Positions 1-8,211 of a DNA stretch of 64,000 nucleotides are shown one piece after another. The notes below the pieces were generated by a model. The model did not search any database. It saw nothing but the letters and a program-made list of their open reading frames with translations, and was not told the DNA's origin. The stretch comes from a virus. The first letter of the stretch is position 1, and every line of letters starts with the position of its first letter. Position numbers and translations under genes: made by a program. Location: the IMG/VR virus record IMGVR_UViG_3300037346_000220, positions 32,001 through 96,000 of that record; one strand, written 5' to 3'.

Positions 1-188
1 ACATTTATTATTTCAACGTTGATAGCGCCTAGCAAGCTAAAAGAATTACCAAGGCCCATAGCCATTATGTCTTCCGCTGTATTCTCCCTGACGTAGTCTA
101 TCTGGTCCTCTGGAGTAAGCTCGCTAAGAACCTCATCCTCATCCACAAAGTATTCAAAAACAATACTAGCTCTTATAACCTTACTCAT
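1..188 (-). CDS. hypothetical acidic early protein, runs off left edge (MSKVIRASIVFEYFVDEDEV...)
   Basis: Hand-translated; ATGA overlap with stop of upstream ORF; no stop before position 1. Confidence 0.7.
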   Translation of the reverse strand, partial: MSKVIRASIVFEYFVDEDEVLSELTPEDQIDYVRENTAEDIMAMGLGNSFSLLGAINVEIIN

Positions 189-307
189 AACCCTAGCTCC
201 TCAATAGCCTGAACAGCCATATGAGTATCCATCATACCCTCAAGGCCCAATTCATCTCTAAGATACTCACAGGTATCGTACACCCCTTGCCAGTATTCAA
301 GATTCAT
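185..307 (-). CDS. 40-aa hypothetical (MNLEYWQGVYDTCEYLRDELG...)
   Basis: Hand-translated; overlaps neighbours in a coupled chain; GGAGG upstream. Confidence 0.65.
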   Translation of the reverse strand: MNLEYWQGVYDTCEYLRDELGLEGMMDTHMAVQAIEELGL

Positions 308-392
308 CTTCATCCTCCAGGGTATCGTTATTAGCTATAACTGGCATACTAAAGAAATTAGTCCAGGTAGTGCCCATAGTTACTTCACTCAT
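297..392 (-). CDS. 31-aa hypothetical (MSEVTMGTTWTNFFSMPV...)
   Basis: Hand-translated; ATGAGTGA overlap with upstream stop; GAGG upstream. Confidence 0.55.
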   Translation of the reverse strand: MSEVTMGTTWTNFFSMPVIANNDTLEDEDES

Positions 393-549
393 CTTCATCC
401 TCTTCCAATTCTTTTACAGTAATGTCCTCTACCTGACCAGTATACTTATAGTCCTCATAGTCCCAACCCTGTTTCTCTGCTGCCGCATAGTCCTCAGCCT
501 CTACTTCATAGGTGTAAGATACTTCTACTGTAACTTCATAGTTTGGCAT
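385..549 (-). CDS. 54-aa acidic hypothetical (MPNYEVTVEVSYTYEVEAEDYAAAEKQGW...)
   Basis: Hand-translated; TAATG coupling to upstream ORF; YEV-EA-xx-xA pattern common in small phage proteins. Confidence 0.75.
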   Translation of the reverse strand: MPNYEVTVEVSYTYEVEAEDYAAAEKQGWDYEDYKYTGQVEDITVKELEEDEDE

Positions 550-746
550 TAGTCTTCCCATTCTGATAGGTCTTCGTGTCCCTTTAGTATAGCAACGGCA
601 TACGACATTTTATCGCTGTCGGCTAGGGTGTCAAGAACACCCCACTGGTCTTCGGTTAGCTGGTCATAAGAAAAGGTAAGCAGCATGCCACTACCGTAGT
701 TGCCATCTTCTGAAACGTATGATTCTGGTCTGAGTGCATAGGTCAT
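549..746 (-). CDS. 65-aa hypothetical early protein (MTYALRPE...)
   Basis: ORF track; start moved to ATG 746, which lies downstream of promoter 776-797. Confidence 0.75.
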   Translation of the reverse strand: MTYALRPESYVSEDGNYGSGMLLTFSYDQLTEDQWGVLDTLADSDKMSYAVAILKGHEDLSEWED

Positions 747-775
747 TGGGGGGTCTCTCTTTCTTTGATAAATCA

Positions 776-797
776 ATACTACCATAGGGGTCAGACA
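776..797 (-). promoter_or_regulatory. PafBC/RecA-NDp-like promoter 1
   Basis: TGTCTG-ACCCCTATGG-TAGTAT; TTGCAT -35 also present (18-nt spacer). Confidence 0.8.
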
Positions 798-933
798 TTA
801 TGCAAGCTACTTTTGGGAGTTTTTTCTAGCTATCTTAATAGGTTATTTATGTTAGTAGATATATTTTAGAATGTCCTGGCGATCGACCACACTCTACCCC
901 CAGTGTCAAACTGAGGGCAGGCGTGTCGTGAAA

Positions 934-1929
934 TTAGGCGTTTGCCAAAACCAACTGAAGCAAACGGTTTTTCTCTGCATTTATCATTGGGTCAAAGCCA
1001 GAAGCGGAAGCCAAGATAGACTCATTGGAACCACCACGAGCTGTGCGATACCAATCCAAACGTTCTGTCATAGCATTGAAAGCACCCCAAGCGGTTCCTG
1101 AAATAGTGTTGTTATAGTCACCCACATAAATCGCTTGGATAAGGTCAACCTTATTTCCATACTTCTTGAATGAACCCTTCTTGTCCTCGCCAACTGGGGC
1201 AGGGTATGCTAGAGCAACAATCTTGTCAAACTTATCCTTAGAGATAGTCTGCTCAATCATCTGCTTAGCCATGATGTCAAATTCATCCATGTATTTGTTA
1301 GCTAGGCCAAGAGCTTCTCTGGCTTGCTGAACCTTGCCAGAAGCGGTTGCTGTATGCCTAATCTTGAAGGACTGCTTAGCCTTACCCTTTAGGGCAACGT
1401 TCAAGGTGTTAGAGCATACAACACGAACTGGAGTAATAGAAGCTTGGATGGCAACTGAACCATCGTGGCTAGTGTTGATTAGTAAATACGTGTTGACTTT
1501 ATCGCCTACACCATTAGGGTCTAACACTGTCTGACGCTCCAAGGCTAGAGAACCGAATACTTGACGGCCACCTTTGATAGAGCCAGCTGTCTCCCAACGT
1601 CCTCCACCATCCAACATTAGGTCTCCAAAGTCAAACAAATCTTCGTTCTGCAATGGAACATAACGCTCACCAACAACGCCTAGAACATCGTTCTGCTCTT
1701 TGTCAAAAGGGTTGGTGCGTGTAACAAAAGAAAAGCTCTTGTCACTTGCAAAGCCTTCAGGAATTGCAACATCTTCTAGACGGACGTTCCAATCTGAAAG
1801 GTGTGCTAGGTCTAGCATTTCCTTAGTTGTAACTTCCTCATCAAATACGGTTCCCAATCCATGCCATGCAGGCTGACGTAGGGATGCGAATGCGGTCTGG
1901 CCATTTACTGTTTCAATTTCGTGCGACAT
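934..1929 (-). CDS. DUF932 / phage-plasmid TIGR03299-like protein
   Basis: MSHEIE..., PAWHGLG, ETAGSIKGGRQVF, NTSHDGS, TPVRVVCSNTL motifs typical of the family. Confidence 0.85.
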   Translation of the reverse strand: MSHEIETVNGQTAFASLRQPAWHGLGTVFDEEVTTKEMLDLAHLSDWNVRLEDVAIPEGFASDKSFSFVTRTNPFDKEQNDVLGVVGERYVPLQNEDLFDFGDLMLDGGGRWETAGSIKGGRQVFGSLALERQTVLDPNGVGDKVNTYLLINTSHDGSVAIQASITPVRVVCSNTLNVALKGKAKQSFKIRHTATASGKVQQAREALGLANKYMDEFDIMAKQMIEQTISKDKFDKIVALAYPAPVGEDKKGSFKKYGNKVDLIQAIYVGDYNNTISGTAWGAFNAMTERLDWYRTARGGSNESILASASGFDPMINAEKNRLLQLVLANA

Positions 1930-1960
1930 AAGGGGTCTTCTCTCTTTGTTTGATAGTACA

Positions 1961-1982
1961 ACTATACACTAGGGGGCTGACA
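1961..1982 (-). promoter_or_regulatory. PafBC/RecA-NDp-like promoter 2
   Basis: TGTCAG-CCCCCTAGTG-TATAGT; TTGATA -35 with 17-nt spacer. Confidence 0.8.
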
Positions 1983-2092
1983 TTATCAAGGTCTTAATGC
2001 ACCTTCTTAAAGGGTTTTATGTAACAGTTAGATAACGAAACGCTCGAGCACAGCGAACCCCCAGGTGTCAACCCAGGGGATCAGCGTGTTGG

Positions 2093-2596
2093 CTATGCTT
2101 TTTCTAAAGTGAACGCCCAAACATAGTCATCGTTGGTTAGTCCTGCCTGTATCTCATCAAAGGTGAGAACGAGGGTAATTCCTTCATAGGTAGAAACAAA
2201 GGTTCTGTTATCTAAATTGAGGGTATAGATACCTTCACACATTAGCTCATCAAACTCAAACTCTAGGTCTAGAACAATAGGCAACATTCCATCACTAGTA
2301 GCAATCACTTCTAGAATGTCTGCGCAAGTGTTTCTTGACATAGTAGGCCAGAGCTTTTCAAACTCTTTATTGTCAAGATTTGCTTTCTCAATCCTAGCAA
2401 TTTCTAACTCCCAGACTGTATCACTCATTGTGTATAGGTTGTCAATGTTATGGGTTAGTAGTTCAATCATCTCAGGGTTACGGATAAAGTTTAGAACGGT
2501 AACGCCCGATCCAGCAGGGTAGCCATCCCATTGTCCATACTGAGAAACTACTGTGTTGCCATCTTTGATTACCTTAGTTATGTTGCGTGTTCCCAT
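2093..2596 (-). CDS. conserved phage hypothetical (MGTR...YxQWDGYP motif)
   Basis: ORF track; recurrent phage N-terminal motif; own promoter upstream. Confidence 0.75.
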   Translation of the reverse strand: MGTRNITKVIKDGNTVVSQYGQWDGYPAGSGVTVLNFIRNPEMIELLTHNIDNLYTMSDTVWELEIARIEKANLDNKEFEKLWPTMSRNTCADILEVIATSDGMLPIVLDLEFEFDELMCEGIYTLNLDNRTFVSTYEGITLVLTFDEIQAGLTNDDYVWAFTLEKA

Positions 2597-2627
2597 TTGG
2601 GATACCTACTTCCTTGGTTATACATAC

Positions 2628-2649
2628 AGACTAGCATTGGGGTCAGACA
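2628..2649 (-). promoter_or_regulatory. PafBC/RecA-NDp-like promoter 3
   Basis: TGTCTG-ACCCCAATGC-TAGTCT; no canonical -35. Confidence 0.8.
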
Positions 2650-2709
2650 CTTTAGGGTGAGCAGTTTACCTAGACTTGCTCAGGTCATTCTCCCTAAACC
2701 TTTGCAGAT

Positions 2710-3156
2710 TTATAGGAACTCTATCAACGCCCCATAGGTTGAGCCAGATACTTCCTCTTGGGTGGTCATACGCAATACCTTGAGGTTTTTCTCTAGCATC
2801 TCTTTTGGAGAGTAGTGGTCACGACCATACCAAGTTCTGCGGTTAGGCTCTTGTGGCTGTTGTGGCATCTCAGGCAATCCAGCTACCGCACTTGGCTTGA
2901 ACTCAATCTGAATACGATTATCTCCATAGGTAACAACACGAATTGGAGCGTCATACTCATAGCTAATGGTATCTTTATTCAACATAACTTTGCTAATTGC
3001 AACAGCTAGGTCTATGCGATACTGCTCTTTGTCCACCTCATACTTTGCCAAGTCATCTGCATAGCTTTCAACTGATGCGTCAATGCTTGCAATCTTTGCT
3101 TCAATTTCTGCGATTAGGAGAGCTGTTGGAATCTTTACGGAAATACTTCTAGCCAT
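2710..3156 (-). CDS. hypothetical coiled-coil early protein
   Basis: ORF track; promoter 4 upstream. Confidence 0.75.
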   Translation of the reverse strand: MARSISVKIPTALLIAEIEAKIASIDASVESYADDLAKYEVDKEQYRIDLAVAISKVMLNKDTISYEYDAPIRVVTYGDNRIQIEFKPSAVAGLPEMPQQPQEPNRRTWYGRDHYSPKEMLEKNLKVLRMTTQEEVSGSTYGALIEFL

Positions 3157-3200
3157 TATAGGGGGTCTGCTTTCATTAGGGGTTATTTGTTTACTTAGTA

Positions 3201-3222
3201 ATTATACAATAGGGGTAGGACA
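3201..3222 (-). promoter_or_regulatory. PafBC/RecA-NDp-like promoter 4
   Basis: TGTCCT-ACCCCTATTG-TATAAT. Confidence 0.75.
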
Positions 3223-3223
3223 T

Positions 3224-3268
3224 TTTAGGGGGAATAGTGAAAGGATTAGAAACTCTACTCCCCCTAAA
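3224..3268 (-). ncRNA. RNA hairpin A with conserved 17-nt loop AGUUUCUAAUCCUUUCA
   Basis: 14-bp stem (one G-U on minus strand); same loop as 5597-5637. Confidence 0.55.
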
Positions 3269-3275
3269 GACTATA

Positions 3276-3428
3276 CTACTTTACAGTAGTCCAGCGAGGC
3301 TGTCCAGATACATCTAGACGAACACGACTTGTGCCGTTCTTGTTCTGAATAACTTCCTGAATTACTCCAGTAACGCCTGACTTAGCTGTGGTGAACTGTG
3401 AGCCAACAGTTAGAGTTGCATTTGACAT
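3276..3428 (-). CDS. 50-aa small beta-rich (KOW/SH3-like) protein (MSNATLTVGSQFTTAKSG...)
   Basis: Internal ATG of track ORF 3276..3578; lies downstream of promoter 3495-3523. Confidence 0.75.
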   Translation of the reverse strand: MSNATLTVGSQFTTAKSGVTGVIQEVIQNKNGTSRVRLDVSGQPRWTTVK

Positions 3429-3494
3429 AATTGCTTCCGTTCTCGCCCCAGAGGGACTATCTTGATTAGTTACCAACGACTTGTTGATAGCTCT

Positions 3495-3523
3495 ATTGTA
3501 GCTGAAATTAGAGTGAAAGTCAA
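3495..3523 (-). promoter_or_regulatory. SigA-type promoter
   Basis: TTGACT-17-TACAAT; RTAAC pair at 3533/3544 just upstream; second promoter TTGCAA-17-TATAGT at 3587-3615. Confidence 0.7.
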
Positions 3524-3697
3524 GCCTATTTGGTAACAAAATGATAACAACTTCTAGGCTTTGTCTTCTCTTTTCCAACTACTATAACTATACCTGAGTG
3601 GGATAGGAATTGCAACTCTTAAACCTACAAAGATTTACGAGATTTTTTGTAGGTATCTTAATTGACTTTATAGGATCTGTGCGCTCGGCCACAGAAG

Positions 3698-3726
3698 AAA
3701 AAAACAGCCAGTTTCTCGTCATGGCC
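3698..3726 (-). terminator. probable intrinsic terminator
   Basis: GGCCA-11nt-TGGCT then G and a T run, downstream of stop at 3742. Confidence 0.5.
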
Positions 3727-3741
3727 AGGACGTCAGTACCC

Positions 3742-3888
3742 CTACTGAAGCTTAGTGTTTTCTATTCTCATGAAGTCTAGTTGACGTTGCATATCAACGA
3801 TGCTTTCCTCTAGGCTAACTATCTTATTGCGCATGCTTAGCAATGCTGGGTGTTGACTCTCTGTCCTAATTGGAGTTACCTTATTCAT
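3742..3888 (-). CDS. 48-aa coiled-coil peptide (MNKVTPIRTESQHPALLSMRNKIVSLEESI...)
   Basis: Hand-translated; ATGAATAA overlap with upstream stop; AGAGG RBS. Confidence 0.65.
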   Translation of the reverse strand: MNKVTPIRTESQHPALLSMRNKIVSLEESIVDMQRQLDFMRIENTKLQ

Positions 3889-4405
3889 GTGAACCTCTCT
3901 TTACTATCCAGATAATTGCTTGGGTTGTTCTAGGTGTTAGGCCATGGATTTTGGCAACTGCCTTTACTGCTTGGCTAAGTGCATGATAGTCACTTTGGCT
4001 AGGTGAGGACTTGGCGTGGTCAACGGCTTTCATCATCCAGACGTCTATCACAACTTGCTCTTGGTCACCTGCAATAGCCTTGGCGAATGCATTAGTCTTT
4101 AGGCCTTTTAGGGCACTAAACCCGTCAGTGAGTGATTTCTCTGCCATACGGATGTTATTCTTTAGGCAGCGGACTTCTTGCCCTAGTGAGAATGCTATGG
4201 CCCTAGCGATGTTCATGGTCCAACGCTCACGAGGTGAGAATGAACTTACAACACTGGCCCCTATCTCTAAGGTGGTCCCTAAGTTTATTGCCACTTTTTC
4301 AGCAATGCGCTCAGCGTCCATATACCAAATTGCTGCCTGCTCAACTTGGCCTAGGGTTGCTTGGGATACAAGCTTGGAGTATTTCTCAATGTAAGTTTCT
4401 AGCAT
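3881..4405 (-). CDS. conserved phage protein with HhH-glycosylase-like motifs
   Basis: WY..A, SPRERW..N, GLKTNAF..AI.GD..VVIDVWM, QAIIW motifs. Confidence 0.6.
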   Translation of the reverse strand: MLETYIEKYSKLVSQATLGQVEQAAIWYMDAERIAEKVAINLGTTLEIGASVVSSFSPRERWTMNIARAIAFSLGQEVRCLKNNIRMAEKSLTDGFSALKGLKTNAFAKAIAGDQEQVVIDVWMMKAVDHAKSSPSQSDYHALSQAVKAVAKIHGLTPRTTQAIIWIVKRGSHE

Positions 4406-4440
4406 TTGGGGTAAGTCTCTCTGTAGGGGTTATAGATTAT

Positions 4441-4469
4441 AGCTTAGCATGTTCTCAGCTGTTTGTCAA
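4441..4469 (-). promoter_or_regulatory. SigA-type promoter
   Basis: TTGACA-17-TAAGCT with TG extension. Confidence 0.75.
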
Positions 4470-4735
4470 CTATCTTCCGAACACCATGCGCCTAAGTAGT
4501 ATGAACTAATAACATTCCTGGCAGACACCTCGGTATTGCCCCTAAAGCTTACACCTTGCGGCAACGGTATTAGTTTATCTAATTCATCTTCCCAATAAGC
4601 GTCAATAGCTGTTATTGCCGTAGGTATCATCTGACGTGGAATTGGAGGATAGCAATTGCTACTAAAGTGGATAGCTATCTGATTCTCTAGGCTCATGCCT
4701 TGCTCTTGCAATTCTATCGCTGTCATCATTCCCAT
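4466..4735 (-). CDS. hypothetical (H..SNCYPP motif)
   Basis: ORF track; TAATG coupling. Confidence 0.75.
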   Translation of the reverse strand: MGMMTAIELQEQGMSLENQIAIHFSSNCYPPIPRQMIPTAITAIDAYWEDELDKLIPLPQGVSFRGNTEVSARNVISSYYLGAWCSEDS

Positions 4736-4929
4736 TATTTTACCTCCACGTATTCCATAGCAACCCTCAAAAGGTTGTCGTAGTCTCCCGACATACTGGC
4801 AGAAAGATACTCGCTAATTTCTGAAGCGGTTGCTCCAGACTTTTTTAGTGCAGACTTTACCGCTCCCATTACCGCAAAAGCGTTTCCATCACGACCTGTT
4901 AGTTGAACTACTACATCGTATTTTGCCAT
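4735..4929 (-). CDS. conserved small phage protein (L.G.DGNAF.VMG...GDYD.LL)
   Basis: Motif recurrent in actinophages; GAAAGGA RBS. Confidence 0.8.
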   Translation of the reverse strand: MAKYDVVVQLTGRDGNAFAVMGAVKSALKKSGATASEISEYLSASMSGDYDNLLRVAMEYVEVK

Positions 4930-4954
4930 TTTGTATCCTTTCGGTTATAAAATA

Positions 4955-4976
4955 ATCATACATCAGGGGTCAGACA
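4955..4976 (-). promoter_or_regulatory. PafBC/RecA-NDp-like promoter 5
   Basis: TGTCTG-ACCCCTGATG-TATGAT. Confidence 0.8.
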
Positions 4977-4982
4977 TTTTAC

Positions 4983-5129
4983 CTAGAACTCTAGGTCATA
5001 TTTCAAGAGCACCCTATCAAAAGCATCATCAAGTTTCTGAAGATCCGCCATCAAAGCATCACGCTGTTCTCGATCCATTTCTTTCACTTCACTCATTGGA
5101 AGTGACATTTCCCAAAATTCTTTTCTCAT
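4983..5129 (-). CDS. 48-aa hypothetical (MRKEFWEMSLPMSEVKEMDREQRDALMADL...)
   Basis: Hand-translated; ATGA overlap; AGGAG RBS. Confidence 0.65.
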   Translation of the reverse strand: MRKEFWEMSLPMSEVKEMDREQRDALMADLQKLDDAFDRVLLKYDLEF

Positions 5130-5326
5130 TTTATCTCCTCTAGGGTAAAGTCATACTCATCGCCACCTGCGAGAGCGTGTTCAAACTCATTTTGATTACT
5201 AAAATAAAAGAAGATACCGTCATCATCCTCACCCTCAGTCCACTCGGCATCAATAGCGACGGTAGCTAGGAAACCCTCTCCTGGAGTATCTTTCCATTCA
5301 ACCAATACCCTCTTGTATTCAGTCAT
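5126..5326 (-). CDS. 66-aa acidic hypothetical (MTEYKRVLVEWKD...)
   Basis: Internal ATG of track ORF; AGGAG RBS; overlap with upstream stop. Confidence 0.7.
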   Translation of the reverse strand: MTEYKRVLVEWKDTPGEGFLATVAIDAEWTEGEDDDGIFFYFSNQNEFEHALAGGDEYDFTLEEIK

Positions 5327-5486
5327 CACTCCTGCTTTCTTTGATAGCTTTATAGTTGTTAGACTGCCTTGAACCCTTATACTTATCAACTTGCGCTACT
5401 AGGTGAGGGTTCTTCAGTATGTTGTAAAATAACGCCTGGCTTTCAACCTTGCGCCTTGCCTCGTTGTATCTTCCTAATTTGCTCAT
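5319..5486 (-). CDS. 55-aa basic leaderless protein (MSKLGRYNEARRKVESQALF...)
   Basis: Hand-translated; ATG 6 nt after the -10 of promoter 6. Confidence 0.7.
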   Translation of the reverse strand: MSKLGRYNEARRKVESQALFYNILKNPHLVAQVDKYKGSRQSNNYKAIKESRSDD

Positions 5487-5492
5487 AGTGAA

Positions 5493-5514
5493 ACTATAAC
5501 ACAGGGGTCAGACA
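5493..5514 (-). promoter_or_regulatory. PafBC/RecA-NDp-like promoter 6
   Basis: TGTCTG-ACCCCTGTGT-TATAGT. Confidence 0.8.
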
Positions 5515-5589
5515 TTTTGGGAAGGAATTTTTCCTATCTTAATTAACTCATCTTAATTAGTTGTCTAATCGTTATAAACGCTCGGGCAG

Positions 5590-5637
5590 AAAAAAATAGC
5601 ACCCAAGGTGAAAGGATTAGAAACTCCCTGGGCACTA
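5590..5637 (-). ncRNA. RNA hairpin B / terminator with conserved 17-nt loop
   Basis: 12-bp stem UAGUGCCCAGGG/CCUUGGGUGCUA, loop identical to hairpin A, then U7. Confidence 0.6.
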
Positions 5638-5690
5638 CTTCTTCTGGGTGGCTTGGTTAGATCGTTTCAGGACCTCACCCAATTATTCCC

Positions 5691-5822
5691 CTAATTAGGA
5701 GGAATAAAACTTGAACGCTTAGTTGAGAAATACTTACGCTTAGCATAGCCAAGAGTGACAAGGACTGCCACAGACACTAGGACTAAGTCTACTAGCAAGT
5801 TGAAACCATTGTAAAAAATCAT
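5691..5822 (-). CDS. 43-aa membrane peptide (MIFYNGFNLLVDLVLVSVAVLVTLGYAKRK...)
   Basis: Hand-translated; one TM helix with basic tail; GAAGG RBS. Confidence 0.7.
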   Translation of the reverse strand: MIFYNGFNLLVDLVLVSVAVLVTLGYAKRKYFSTKRSSFIPPN

Positions 5823-5929
5823 TAGTTACCTTCTTTCGTTGTGAATAGTTTATCAGGGGTATCAGACAACATTAGCTCTATCTTGAAGATTAGCTCCTCA
5901 AGGGTTTCTGTGCTTAGGCGCTCAGGCAT
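5822..5929 (-). CDS. 35-aa hypothetical (MPERLSTETLEELIFKIELML...)
   Basis: Hand-translated; coupled at both ends. Confidence 0.5.
   Translation of the reverse strand: MPERLSTETLEELIFKIELMLSDTPDKLFTTKEGN
5847..5868 (-). promoter_or_regulatory. PafBC/RecA-NDp-like promoter 7
   Basis: TGTCTG-ATACCCCTGA-TAAACT (inside the 35-aa ORF). Confidence 0.7.
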
Positions 5930-6080
5930 AACCAAGCTCTCTAAGCTCTACGGGAAAGTCTTCACCTAGATAGTCTACAGCGTCTAACACTAGCATTACT
6001 CCGTCATACTCGTTGCAGCCAGAACACACATAGAACTCTACTGTGTCTAGGCAATACACGCACAATTTCATTTCATTCAT
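5922..6080 (-). CDS. 52-aa Zn-ribbon microprotein (CVYC...CSGC)
   Basis: Hand-translated; GAAAGGA RBS; promoter 8 upstream. Confidence 0.75.
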   Translation of the reverse strand: MNEMKLCVYCLDTVEFYVCSGCNEYDGVMLVLDAVDYLGEDFPVELRELGYA

Positions 6081-6107
6081 TACTTATCCTTTCGTTGTTA
6101 TAAGCTT

Positions 6108-6129
6108 AGCTTAGCACGGGGGTCTGACA
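6108..6129 (-). promoter_or_regulatory. PafBC/RecA-NDp-like promoter 8
   Basis: TGTCAG-ACCCCCGTGC-TAAGCT. Confidence 0.8.
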
Positions 6130-6261
6130 TTATAGACAGCCCACGTTCACAGTAAATTCTTCAACGCTAAAGGCACACTTTGGGCACAGGGCGTTCACTG
6201 TGTCGTCTATTAGCAATACAGCTTCGGTTGCCTTGGCAAACTTACAAAATCCACAGTTCAT
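6130..6261 (-). CDS. 43-aa Zn-ribbon microprotein (CGFC...CPKC)
   Basis: Hand-translated; AAAGGA RBS; promoter 9 upstream. Confidence 0.75.
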   Translation of the reverse strand: MNCGFCKFAKATEAVLLIDDTVNALCPKCAFSVEEFTVNVGCL

Positions 6262-6286
6262 TTATCATCCTTTTCGTTATAGGTTT

Positions 6287-6308
6287 ATCTTAGCACAGGG
6301 GTCTGACA
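6287..6308 (-). promoter_or_regulatory. PafBC/RecA-NDp-like promoter 9
   Basis: TGTCAG-ACCCCTGTGC-TAAGAT. Confidence 0.8.
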
Positions 6309-6310
6309 TT

Positions 6311-6505
6311 TTAGGTTGCTCTGCCAGAAAGAAGATAGTCAATTTCTTCTTCCCTAGCCAAATCGTTGTTATGTTCCCAAAGCTTGTTGTGAACGGATAG
6401 TGTGTGGCTAGTCTTCCACGCCTTAGCGTCAAGATAGTAGGTGGTGCTTAGTTCCTGAGTAAATCCACAGCCGTTGCAGGTGGTCTTGCGATACATTTTT
6501 GTCAT
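6311..6505 (-). CDS. 64-aa probable C2H2-type Zn protein (CNGC...H....H)
   Basis: ORF track; AAAGGA RBS; promoter TTGCTA-17-TAGGTT at 6531-6559. Confidence 0.75.
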   Translation of the reverse strand: MTKMYRKTTCNGCGFTQELSTTYYLDAKAWKTSHTLSVHNKLWEHNNDLAREEEIDYLLSGRAT

Positions 6506-6568
6506 TGATCATCCTTTGCGTTATAGGTATAACCTATCACACATCTGACCCAATAGCAAGTCTATTAG

Positions 6569-6606
6569 GTAACAGTTAGGTAACGTTTATGTAACGTTTA
6601 GGTAAC
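6569..6606. repeat. 4x GTAAC direct repeat at 11-bp period (OmpR-family MtrA/GlnR-like box)
   Basis: GTAAC at 6569, 6580, 6591, 6602, just upstream of the -35 at 6554-6559. Confidence 0.7.
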
Positions 6607-6705
6607 ATCTATTAGTTTTGGGAATAAACTTTTCCCATCTTAATTTGGGAGATCTTAAATACATTCTTAAGCTTATTTGGGGAATAAATCTATAGTGGGC
6701 GCTCG

Positions 6706-6738
6706 AAAAAAAATCGGCAAATGTCAAGCGACACGCCG
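6706..6738 (-). terminator. intrinsic terminator overlapping a CGGCGTGTCG box
   Basis: CGGCG-TGTC-GCTT-GACA-TTT-GCCG then A and T8. Confidence 0.6.
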
Positions 6739-6754
6739 TGGAGAAATAAACTAT

Positions 6755-6865
6755 TTAGTTTATCTCGCCATACGCCTCGTAGCAATTTACGCAAGCGGTT
6801 TCACCTTCAACCTCTACAGTTGGAACGGTGTTTGAACATATTTCGCAAAATTTGAAATCAATCAT
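6755..6865 (-). CDS. 36-aa Zn-ribbon microprotein (CEIC...CVNC)
   Basis: Hand-translated; GAAAGGA RBS. Confidence 0.75.
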   Translation of the reverse strand: MIDFKFCEICSNTVPTVEVEGETACVNCYEAYGEIN

Positions 6866-6911
6866 CTTTTACATCCTTTCTATTTATTTCTTTATCTTTA
6901 TTTATACTAGT

Positions 6912-6952
6912 AGTCTATACCCTACACCCCCAAAAGTCAAGACGACACGCCG
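6912..6952 (-). promoter_or_regulatory. SigA-type promoter with upstream CGGCGTGTCG box
   Basis: CGGCGTGTCG-TC-TTGACT-17-TAGACT. Confidence 0.75.
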
Positions 6953-6989
6953 TGTTTGGCGAAAGTTCTTTATAACAAAACAGTAACGG

Positions 6990-7139
6990 TTATAGGCTAC
7001 CTAGACGGCTGGCAAAGTCTTCGTTCCAGATCCAGTTCCAGGTATAGCCTAGTGATGCAACCCTAATCAATAGGTAGGCGATGTAAGCTGTGCCTGCTAG
7101 GCAAATGGCGTATACGCTAATTCTTTTTGACTTTGTCAT
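6990..7139 (-). CDS. 49-aa membrane peptide (MTKSKRISVYAICLAGTAYIAYLLIRV...)
   Basis: Internal ATG of track ORF; AAAGGA RBS. Confidence 0.7.
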   Translation of the reverse strand: MTKSKRISVYAICLAGTAYIAYLLIRVASLGYTWNWIWNEDFASRLGSL

Positions 7140-7166
7140 TTCTTTATCCTTTGTTTGTATATCTAT

Positions 7167-7207
7167 AGCATAGTGCATAGGTGAGACATTATCAATACGA
7201 CACGCCG
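7167..7207 (-). promoter_or_regulatory. composite promoter 10 (GACAC box, -35 and PafBC-like element)
   Basis: CGGCGTGTCG-TA-TTGATA-A-TGTCTC-ACCTATGCAC-TATGCT. Confidence 0.7.
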
Positions 7208-7215
7208 AAGAATAG

Positions 7216-7246
7216 AAAAAAAATACCCCTATTGTTCTGGGGTATT
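7216..7246 (-). terminator. intrinsic terminator
   Basis: AATACCCC-9nt-GGGGTATT then T run. Confidence 0.7.
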
Positions 7247-7324
7247 CATTTCGGTAACAACACTAGCAATTCCAGCAATAGCGTTGTCATAGTCCTCCCA
7301 AGTATCAAAAGTGAGCGTTATCAT
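7229..7324 (-). CDS. 31-aa hypothetical (MITLTFDTWEDYDNAIAGI...)
   Basis: Hand-translated; GAGGT upstream. Confidence 0.55.
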   Translation of the reverse strand: MITLTFDTWEDYDNAIAGIASVVTEMNTPEQ

Positions 7325-7328
7325 TATG

Positions 7329-7493
7329 TTACCAACCTCTCGTTGAACCCAGAGCGTTAGCCATTACCATTAGACCGTTGATGTATTTGATTTCACTATC
7401 ACTAGGGGTATCACCTACGATAGACACTAGTGTTTCTATCTCTACCTCTATCTCTGATAGTGAGAGGGTATCCAATTCTTTGAATCTATTCAT
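7329..7493 (-). CDS. 54-aa hypothetical (MNRFKELDTLSLSEIEVEIE...)
   Basis: Hand-translated; AAAGGA RBS; promoter 11 upstream. Confidence 0.7.
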   Translation of the reverse strand: MNRFKELDTLSLSEIEVEIETLVSIVGDTPSDSEIKYINGLMVMANALGSTRGW

Positions 7494-7519
7494 TATTATC
7501 CTTTACTGTTTATACTATG

Positions 7520-7541
7520 ATACTAACACTAGGGTCAGACA
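7520..7541 (-). promoter_or_regulatory. PafBC/RecA-NDp-like promoter 11
   Basis: TGTCTG-ACCCTAGTGT-TAGTAT. Confidence 0.8.
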
Positions 7542-7543
7542 CT

Positions 7544-7678
7544 TTAGAATGTCTTGCTAAGCTGTAAGTCTATCCACCTAAGCCAAGTTGCACCTACTGG
7601 CTTATTGCCAGACTTGATGCCCTGTAGCACTGTTGAGTAAAACATTTTTTCTTCTTTATTCATTCTTGATTTCTTCAT
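7544..7678 (-). CDS. 44-aa basic leaderless protein (MKKSRMNKEEKMFYSTVLQGIKSG...)
   Basis: Hand-translated; ATG 6 nt after the -10 of promoter 12. Confidence 0.65.
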   Translation of the reverse strand: MKKSRMNKEEKMFYSTVLQGIKSGNKPVGATWLRWIDLQLSKTF

Positions 7679-7684
7679 AGTTCT

Positions 7685-7706
7685 ACCTTACCATAGGGGT
7701 CTGACA
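7685..7706 (-). promoter_or_regulatory. PafBC/RecA-NDp-like promoter 12
   Basis: TGTCAG-ACCCCTATGG-TAAGGT. Confidence 0.8.
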
Positions 7707-7708
7707 TT

Positions 7709-7849
7709 TTAGATGGACTCATTACCAGTTACCATTAGGATGGTGTAGCCCATCCCCTCAAGCTTAGCGATAGCGTTATCAACATTGGCTGGCATTGAAC
7801 CAAACCAAACCATTGAGTCATTGTCCTTGCTTACGAAAATCTTCTTCAT
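7709..7849 (-). CDS. 46-aa hypothetical (MKKIFVSKDNDSMVWFGSMP...)
   Basis: Hand-translated; AAAGGA RBS. Confidence 0.7.
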   Translation of the reverse strand: MKKIFVSKDNDSMVWFGSMPANVDNAIAKLEGMGYTILMVTGNESI

Positions 7850-7882
7850 TTCTCTATCCTTTATCTTTCTTTGTATAGTTAC

Positions 7883-7923
7883 ACTCTACAGGATAGACAT
7901 TCAAAAGTCAACACGACACGCCG
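7883..7923 (-). promoter_or_regulatory. SigA-type promoter with upstream CGGCGTGTCG box (first promoter of early region)
   Basis: CGGCGTGTCG-TG-TTGACT-17-TAGAGT. Confidence 0.75.
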
Positions 7924-8211
7924 ATGATTGGAAAACTTTTCTCATAAGGGTGGCACCAGTGTGCTCACTAATTATGCTTGCTTATTCACCCAGATCGTGT
8001 ATCGTACATAACTATAAAATATTCAGATATTGCTAAAAATAGATTTTTTCAGATTTAGGCGGTATACCAATATCCATCATATCTCTGATCTCCAGGGTAT
8101 CTATAACATACACAATATCCCATAGTAGATATAATCTTAATGTCTAGTAAGGATATCCTAAGTATAAACAATATATGGTGCTATCCTTATAGTAAAGAAG
8201 GAGGGGAATAC

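Follow-up and report, generated by a model that had tools for sequence, protein, structure and literature searches.

Putative PafBC-type promoters in the early gene block of a probable virulent actinophage

We analyzed a 64,000-nucleotide (nt) stretch of viral DNA, referred to here as the window, which corresponds to bases 32001-96000 of the 111,267-bp IMG/VR virus record IMGVR_UViG_3300037346_000220, rated as complete by CheckV. The small leftward genes of its early block lie behind repeated copies of one promoter element, TGTC-N12-TANNNT. We propose, with a probability of roughly 0.65, that these early promoters belong to the PafBC "sigma adaptation" class, carried in this case by a virulent actinophage and read by the PafBC activator of its host. 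The elements have the architecture of PafBC promoters, are conserved in related phages, and are identical to promoters of damage genes in candidate hosts. These hosts carry pafBC, and no PafBC was found in the phage genome. From these sequences we infer that PafBC binds and activates the promoters, that single-stranded DNA (ssDNA) is the trigger, and that the genes are expressed in a temporal order.

The original prediction had placed twelve copies of the element on the minus strand, at 776, 1961, 2628, 3201, 4955, 5493, 5847, 6108, 6287, 7167, 7520, and 7685, and all of them were found there. These putative promoters are given below with a 13th strong site at the left edge of the window and two further candidates. 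Coordinates are those of the window unless marked as genome, and lengths of encoded proteins are in amino acids (aa).

7685..7706, minus strand: PafBC-type promoter TGTCAGACCCCTATGGTAAGGT without a -35; the ATG (7678) of a 44-aa gene lies 6 nt past the -10, and the mRNA is probably leaderless.
7520..7541, minus strand: PafBC-type promoter aaaGTGTCTGACCCT..TAGTAT; a 54-aa gene lies downstream, with its start at 7493.
7167..7188, minus strand: hybrid promoter, with the TGTC box within the spacer of TTGATA-17-TATGCT (7195-7167); a 49-aa membrane protein is encoded downstream.
6287..6308, minus strand: PafBC-type promoter ctaaaaTGTCAGACCCC..TAAGAT; a 43-aa CxxC protein is encoded downstream.
6108..6129, minus strand: PafBC-type promoter; a 52-aa CxxC protein is encoded downstream.
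5847..5868, minus strand: weaker variant TGTCTGATACCCC..TAAACT; a 43-aa membrane protein is encoded downstream.
5493..5514, minus strand: PafBC-type promoter of a 55-aa gene, whose ATG (5486) lies 6 nt past the -10 (leaderless).
4955..4976, minus strand: PafBC-type promoter; a 64-aa gene (phrog_1933) and an 89-aa gene lie downstream.
3201..3222, minus strand: PafBC-type promoter TGTCCTACCCC..TATAAT, with a hairpin directly upstream and a 148-aa gene downstream.
2628..2649, minus strand: PafBC-type promoter; a 167-aa gene lies downstream.
1961..1982, minus strand: hybrid promoter of the DUF932 gene, with a TTGATA -35 at 17 bp in addition to the TGTC box.
776..797, minus strand: PafBC-type promoter with a weak TTGCAT at 18 bp; a 65-aa gene lies downstream.
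-18..3 (genome 31982-32003), minus strand: 13th strong site, TGTCTGACCCCTACAGTATAAT, with an ATG 7 nt past the -10 (leaderless).
586..607, minus strand: probable internal promoter aaaaTGTCGTATGCCGTTGCTATACT, 36 nt ahead of the ATG at 549.
Genome 30588: weak site, from the whole-genome position-matrix scan.

A further match at genome 31864-31885 was rejected as a promoter, because a coding sequence begins there (ATG TCT GAG...).

The distance between the two halves of the element is exact, as had been claimed. Within the 13.2-kb leftward block, counting the strand that carries the genes, TGTC was found 12 nt ahead of TANNNT 17 times, compared with 0 to 2 times at other spacings; a count of 10 at N7 represents the same sites read a second way. 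When all pairs of a 4-mer and a gap ahead of TANNNT were counted without bias, TGTC at a gap of 12 ranked first, and the remaining 97.8 kb of the genome contained just three TGTC-N12-TANNNT matches. This exact spacing is far beyond chance. The other properties attributed to the twelve sites were also borne out: the spacer begins with ACCCC in 8 of them, a start codon lies 6-45 nt downstream of each, and a -35 is present only at 776 (the weak TTGCAT), 1961, and 7167 (both TTGATA), at 17-18 bp. Of the 13 strong sites, 10 have no -35 at all, meaning that this feature of PafBC promoters holds for the majority and not for every site. The extended consensus of the phage sites reads cTAAAATGTC(A/T)GACCCCTrTGnTAnnnT. 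It includes an extended -10 (TGn) at most sites and an A-tract just upstream of the box (cTAAAATGTC), which often holds the stop codon of the preceding gene. At three sites (7685, 5493, and -18..3), an ATG lies only 6-7 nt past the -10. Leaderless mRNAs of this arrangement are common in actinobacteria, and the three sites provide independent support for TAnnnT as a working -10.

The published PafBC motif, tGTCgg(N10)tA(N3)T, has its 5' part at -28..-23, with lower case marking positions that are 50% conserved or less (PMC8635444). Of these bases, only the GTC triplet is contacted specifically, through residues R46 and R50 of PafB, and PafBC promoters are without a -35 (PMC8635444). The phage sites agree with this motif in its well-conserved positions and in its 22-nt geometry, and the GTC triplet, contained within TGTC, is present at all 13 strong sites. 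A concern had been raised previously that positions 5-6 of the phage box differ from the mycobacterial consensus. This concern was unfounded: neither position exceeds 50% conservation in the published motif, and both are variable among host promoters.

Related phages were collected through the DUF932 protein, which yielded 141 related IMG/VR stretches, of which 80 loci were kept. In 79 of these relatives, TGTC-N12-TANNNT occurred 851 times on the gene strand. Other spacings gave ~90-310 occurrences, the element itself was found 207 times on the opposite strand, and none of the single-base variants of TGTC rose above background. The orthologous DUF932 promoter carries the box at N12 from TANNNT in 63 of the 79 relatives, and in most of the other 16 the spacing is unchanged but TGTC precedes a variant -10, either CATAAT or GATAAT. 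Four complete relatives hold 12-16 sites each, clustered on one strand. The mycobacterial RecA-NDp form itself, TGTCGGTGG-N7-TAnnnT, was present in many relatives (L013, L014, L015, L023, L065).

Across the 654 distinct sites of this family, the conserved positions are an A-rich -2..0, TGTC, G6 (80%), W7, S8, S9, TG at 14-15 (~60%), and TAnnnT. This pattern bears on a different explanation of the repeats, in which they are recombination or cassette-boundary sequences that shuffle the small early genes, with promoter activity being incidental. The sites do lie at junctions of poorly conserved, mosaic small genes, and the ACCCC spacer shared by 8 of the 12 sites suggests concerted evolution. However, conservation is concentrated in TGTC, G6, TGn, and TAnnnT, which are exactly spaced, and the remaining positions vary freely, which argues for a promoter that is read by a protein and not for a block of homology, and a role in recombination is very improbable.

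Positions 7-9 of the box, viewed over the same 654 sites, are mostly ACC or TGG, that is, complementary letters in the same places (W-S-S), and mixed forms are rare. This alternation could reflect readout of the minor groove or of DNA shape, or it could stem from promoter copies of common descent. The idea that the two flavours of box (GACC versus GTGG) track host genera was rejected, as both occur in the Aquiluna-genus sample and within single phage genomes. The distant cultured relative Moab, a Streptomyces phage of the Stanwilliamsviridae, was also tried as a model and rejected, with 4 matches to the motif versus 6 in the control. Between 97341 and 121435 of Moab (L001), a stretch of 24 kb, a GC-rich hairpin with CAAGCTT(CC) after it is present in 23 copies, which stand just before ribosome-binding sites. 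Moab also has GGGTTGACA-type promoters, and its intergenic system is different from the TGTC class, so that the comparison yielded no cultured model.

The host of the phage is probably an actinobacterium, judging by its WhiB gene and by the likenesses of its portal and NrdE proteins. The phage NrdE is closest to those of aquatic Actinomycetota metagenome-assembled genomes (MAGs) and Rhodoluna (76-77%), followed by Aquiluna (74%) and Nanopelagicus (73%), and five such genomes, from lineages that include Aquiluna, Rhodoluna, and Nanopelagicus, were examined as candidate hosts. All five contain two adjacent WYL genes of ~310-350 aa. The Rhodoluna pair, the one pair compared with solved structures, matches PafB and PafC (6SJ9, 7P5X), in that order; no NCBIfam model names the host PafB or PafC, and solved structures were used. 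The recognition helix reads RMFERDK in the PafB proteins of Rhodoluna, Nanopelagicus, and a Rhodoluna-like MAG, and R50 is conserved in all.

Comparison with the recA promoters of the candidate hosts, which the original prediction had proposed as a check, revealed (T/A/C)GTC-N12-TAnnnT ahead of host recA. These promoters follow the pattern aaaa(T/A)GTC(A/G)GA(C/G)(C/G)..TAGCTT, with aaaaTGTCAGACCgagagcgTAGCTT located 37 nt ahead of an Aquiluna recA gene and aaaaTGTCAGACC upstream of an Aquiluna recA gene. Searching the five genomes with AATGTCNG-N10-TANNNT gave 11 matches, compared with 0 for the reversed control, and matches lay upstream of recA, clgR, a UvrD-like helicase gene, dnaX, and a YneA-like LysM gene. 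The promoter of the last of these, cTTGACAAAATGTCGGTGGgtctgcgTATTCT, resembles promoters of the phage relatives, and a LexA box is present there too. In 41 genomes of the genus Aquiluna, the WSS form of the motif was matched 23 times, versus once in the reversed control, and ATGTCAGACCCC was found in genomes of this genus, in one case ahead of an RmuC-like gene (judged by eye). Finally, a position matrix built from 20 distinct host recA promoters only was scanned over both strands of the phage genome (222 kb). Phage sites held the top 8 places, the best being the site at 7685, which scored 23.6 bits compared with a maximum of 17.8 in 20 shuffles, and 12 matches exceeded 12 bits, compared with 0-5 in the shuffles. 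Several recA promoters in the Aquiluna-genus sample were also seen to start with AGTC and not TGTC.

Two activators had originally been put forward as readers of the element. Host PafBC is strongly supported in silico, by the motif, the candidate hosts, and the matrix, whereas a WYL activator encoded by the phage outside the window was rejected, because no WYL gene was found in the complete phage genome or in five complete relatives. Searches of the phage for a PafB homologue and for sigma region 4 were also negative, and Pfam searches of 40 early-block proteins returned DUF932, DUF7178, and DUF6171 only, with no DNA-binding domain. The 111-kb genome contains 0 CGAAC-N4-GTTCG sites, the core of the actinobacterial LexA box TCGAAC-N4-GTTCGA. 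Furthermore, the immediate-early mini-proteins are hardly conserved among the relatives, while the TGTC box is invariant across the clade, a combination that favours a conserved reader supplied by the host.

Several observations weigh against host PafBC as the reader. The first base of the box, T1, is invariant in the phages. Its conservation in Mycobacterium smegmatis is weak, and some host recA promoters have A or C at this position, which makes the phage box more constrained than the known requirement of PafBC. Two Aquiluna PafB proteins (L169/L175 and L166/L173) read KMFDRDK in the recognition helix, with Lys in place of the guanine-reading R46 of M. smegmatis. The extended -10 TGn at most phage sites could allow firing without an activator, and the host recA sites that were examined do not have a TGn. 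In addition, a good -35 at 17-18 bp is present at 3 of the 13 sites and, in most relatives, at the DUF932 promoter. The box could also be read by small phage proteins that belong to no known family.

In a second explanation, the TGTC box is read by a phage factor whose family is not recognisable and which recruits or remodels sigma-A, in the manner of T4 MotA/AsiA at middle promoters, and the likeness to PafBC is due to convergence or mimicry. Candidates for such a factor are a small zinc-ribbon early protein or a 50-aa protein encoded at 3276-3428. The latter has a canonical promoter, is conserved in 70 of the 79 loci, and fell only into unnamed clusters in an Atlas look-up. Another conserved early protein is encoded at 4466-4735. 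The excess invariance of T1 would be in line with a factor of this kind, as would the fact that many early proteins are unannotated CxxC mini-proteins. However, a phage factor would need to copy the specificity of PafBC exactly, given that host recA and other damage genes share the motif, flanks included. The searches described above found no gene for a DNA-binding domain, WYL, PafB-like, or sigma-like protein, and the contrast between hardly conserved immediate-early proteins and a box that is invariant clade-wide is also against it. We consider a phage-encoded reader unlikely.

The TGn and -35 elements bear on a third explanation, namely that these are constitutive extended -10 promoters of sigma-A, in which TGTC lies in the spacer as an operator or modulator, bound by a repressor or a host factor, and times shut-off, not activation. 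A WhiA-like reader of GACA acting with the phage WhiB would be an example. TGn is present at most sites of this phage and at 329 of the 654 family sites, and where a good -35 is paired with a box in the spacer, the box has the classic position of an operator. Read on the opposite strand, the box gives GACA, or 4 of the 5 bases of the WhiA motif GACAC (PMC10243135), and the phage encodes a conserved WhiB. Against this, the base before TGTC is G in 5% of the 654 family sites, and GACAC is therefore not conserved; WhiA sites are found upstream of the -35, at distances that vary (PMC10243135), whereas the TGTC box has a fixed place at -28..-25; searches of the phage revealed neither a repressor nor an integrase; and an operator would not explain why host recA promoters are identical to these sites. 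We judge an operator function quite unlikely. Collectively, none of the three rival explanations accounts as simply as PafBC does for this identity.

With PafBC as the reader, the promoters would work as follows. The sigma-A RNA polymerase of the host would read the TAnnnT -10, aided by the extended -10 TGn, which would add strength. In place of a -35, host PafBC would dock on the TGTC box at -28..-25 and bridge to sigma region 4. PafBC is activated by ssDNA (PMC11804915). During infection, ssDNA arising from DNA entry, nuclease attack, or replication would switch host PafBC on, and the appearance of ssDNA would start expression of the genes that these promoters serve, the DUF932 gene and ~35 small early ones.

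The leftward block also contains canonical -35/-10 promoters, at 7911, 6940, 4469, and 3523, which would give PafBC-independent expression. The first of these is accompanied by a 9-mer, as follows.

7883..7922, minus strand: canonical sigma-A promoter TTGACT-17-TAGAGT, preceded by GGCGTGTCG.

The promoters at 7883-7922, 6912-6951, and 6729-6737 probably form an immediate-early class for which the TGTC box is not needed. The 9-mer GGCGTGTCG occurs 1-3 nt upstream of a canonical -35 at 7914-7922, 7198-7206, 6943-6951, and 6729-6737 on the minus strand and at 920-928 on the plus strand; the copy at 7198-7206 adjoins the minus-strand hybrid promoter at 7167..7188. In the 79 relatives, it is present in 139 and 116 copies on the two strands, compared with ~5 expected per strand, often in the form ACGGCGTGTCG-n-TTGACA. 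The WhiA motif GACAC (PMC10243135) is contained in GGCGTGTCG, and aaGACACGCCGAc is present in Aquiluna recA upstream regions. Placed next to the -35, GGCGTGTCG may mark a second class of promoter that uses host WhiA together with the phage WhiB.

Leftward genes extend from ~9850 of the window to genome 28756, and all other genes, including those for structural proteins, DnaB, primase, a DnaE-type polymerase, NrdEF, and sugar tailoring, run rightward. An exact terminal repeat of 127 bp is present; it looks like an assembly overlap, in which case the true genome ends are not fixed by it. The genome encodes a WhiB protein, a family that is restricted to actinobacteria (PMC6282962), its portal protein is 47% identical to those of Streptomyces phages (Stanwilliamsviridae), and a search of the phage genome for a tyrosine or serine recombinase (integrase) found none. 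The phage is therefore probably a virulent actinophage. Its DNA is present in salt-lake metagenomes, and no RNA data set turned up for positions 1-8000 of the window.

The WhiB-like protein, encoded outside the window (G000:C1:8483-8773; L082:1483-1773, plus strand), is 96 aa long and ends in a basic C-terminal tail. Its gene belongs to the core of the clade, and almost all of its 571 homologues lie on contigs of phage size. Identification of the host through this protein was tried and abandoned, as the homologues belong to the phage clade itself and no cellular relative turned up. A 23-kb contig from Lake Mendota (L086, JBIPLL010000671.1), binned as Beijerinckiaceae, encodes an NrdE that is 84% identical to that of the phage; it is probably a relative of this phage that was mis-binned into a proteobacterial MAG. 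Within the early block, 5922-6865 of the window and genome 31879-31974 encode a run of 31-64-aa proteins with paired CxxC (zinc-ribbon-like), most of which have no homologue even in close relatives. Two minus-strand hairpins, at ~3228-3265 and 5599-5635, have different stems and the same loop, AGTTTCTAATCCTTTCAC; a T-run comes after one of them, and the TGTC promoter at 3222 directly after the other.

A broader proposition, which we regard as evenly poised, extends this picture to the whole clade. An abundant clade of virulent aquatic actinophages, represented by at least 141 IMG/VR contigs, would do without an early or middle activator of its own and would use the host ssDNA sensor PafBC, by way of sigma adaptation, to switch on its delayed-early genes, which probably serve host takeover and anti-defence. 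The alarm of the host would become the timer of the phage, with the GGCGTGTCG promoters as a second class that may depend on host WhiA and phage WhiB. Sigma adaptation by PafBC has so far been known solely as a host response to DNA damage. If the proposed reading is correct, a virulent phage runs a temporal class of genes on a damage activator that the host can hardly afford to lose, and its timer is a DNA-damage alarm that is also raised when defences cut phage DNA. Sensing of ssDNA by WYL proteins, which has already been tied to anti-phage defence, would then be linked to gene control from the side of the phage. In practical terms, ~650 distinct natural promoter variants would map the tolerance of PafBC, and the element would serve as a sequence signature by which uncultured phages could be linked to hosts among the actinobacteria. 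Our literature search on RecA-NDp, on PafBC with phage, and on PafBC with mycobacteriophage did not turn up any description of PafBC-class promoters in phages; a 2025 paper on PafBC and mycobacteriophage resistance is cited in PMC12848934.

Among known systems, the middle promoters of T4, in which a MotA box at -30 is combined with a sigma-70 -10, share with the TGTC promoters an activator box that replaces the -35, a -10 read by the host sigma factor, and, as proposed here, a temporal class that follows the immediate-early genes. T4, however, encodes both factors and remodels sigma region 4, whereas no phage factor was found here and the box equals the one used by a host activator. In phages with genes under SOS control, through LexA boxes or cleavable repressors of the CI type, expression is tied to the DNA-damage signal of the host, as is proposed for the TGTC promoters. 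Those cases are repressor-based, RecA-dependent, and mostly temperate, while here there is no LexA box and no integrase, and the regulator would be an activator. Promoters of WhiA and WhiB (PMC10243135) resemble the proposed mode of action of the present ones in having an activator that bridges to region 4 of sigma-A. Their GACA(C) motif is similar to the TGTC box read as its complement, and a WhiB is encoded by the phage. They differ in that the WhiA motif is located upstream of the -35 without a fixed distance and its fifth base is not conserved in the phage sites, so this system is a better fit to the separate GGCGTGTCG element by the canonical promoters than to the TGTC box. The PafBC/RecA-NDp promoters (PMC8635444; PMC11804915) have in common with the phage sites the 22-nt architecture, the box at -28..-23, the GTC triplet, a sigma-A -10, and, usually, no -35. 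Compared with their mycobacterial counterparts, the phage promoters are located on the genome of a virulent phage, with at least 13 in a 10-kb early block, and add an invariant T1, the extended -10 TGn, the upstream A-tract, and ACCCC at positions 7-11.

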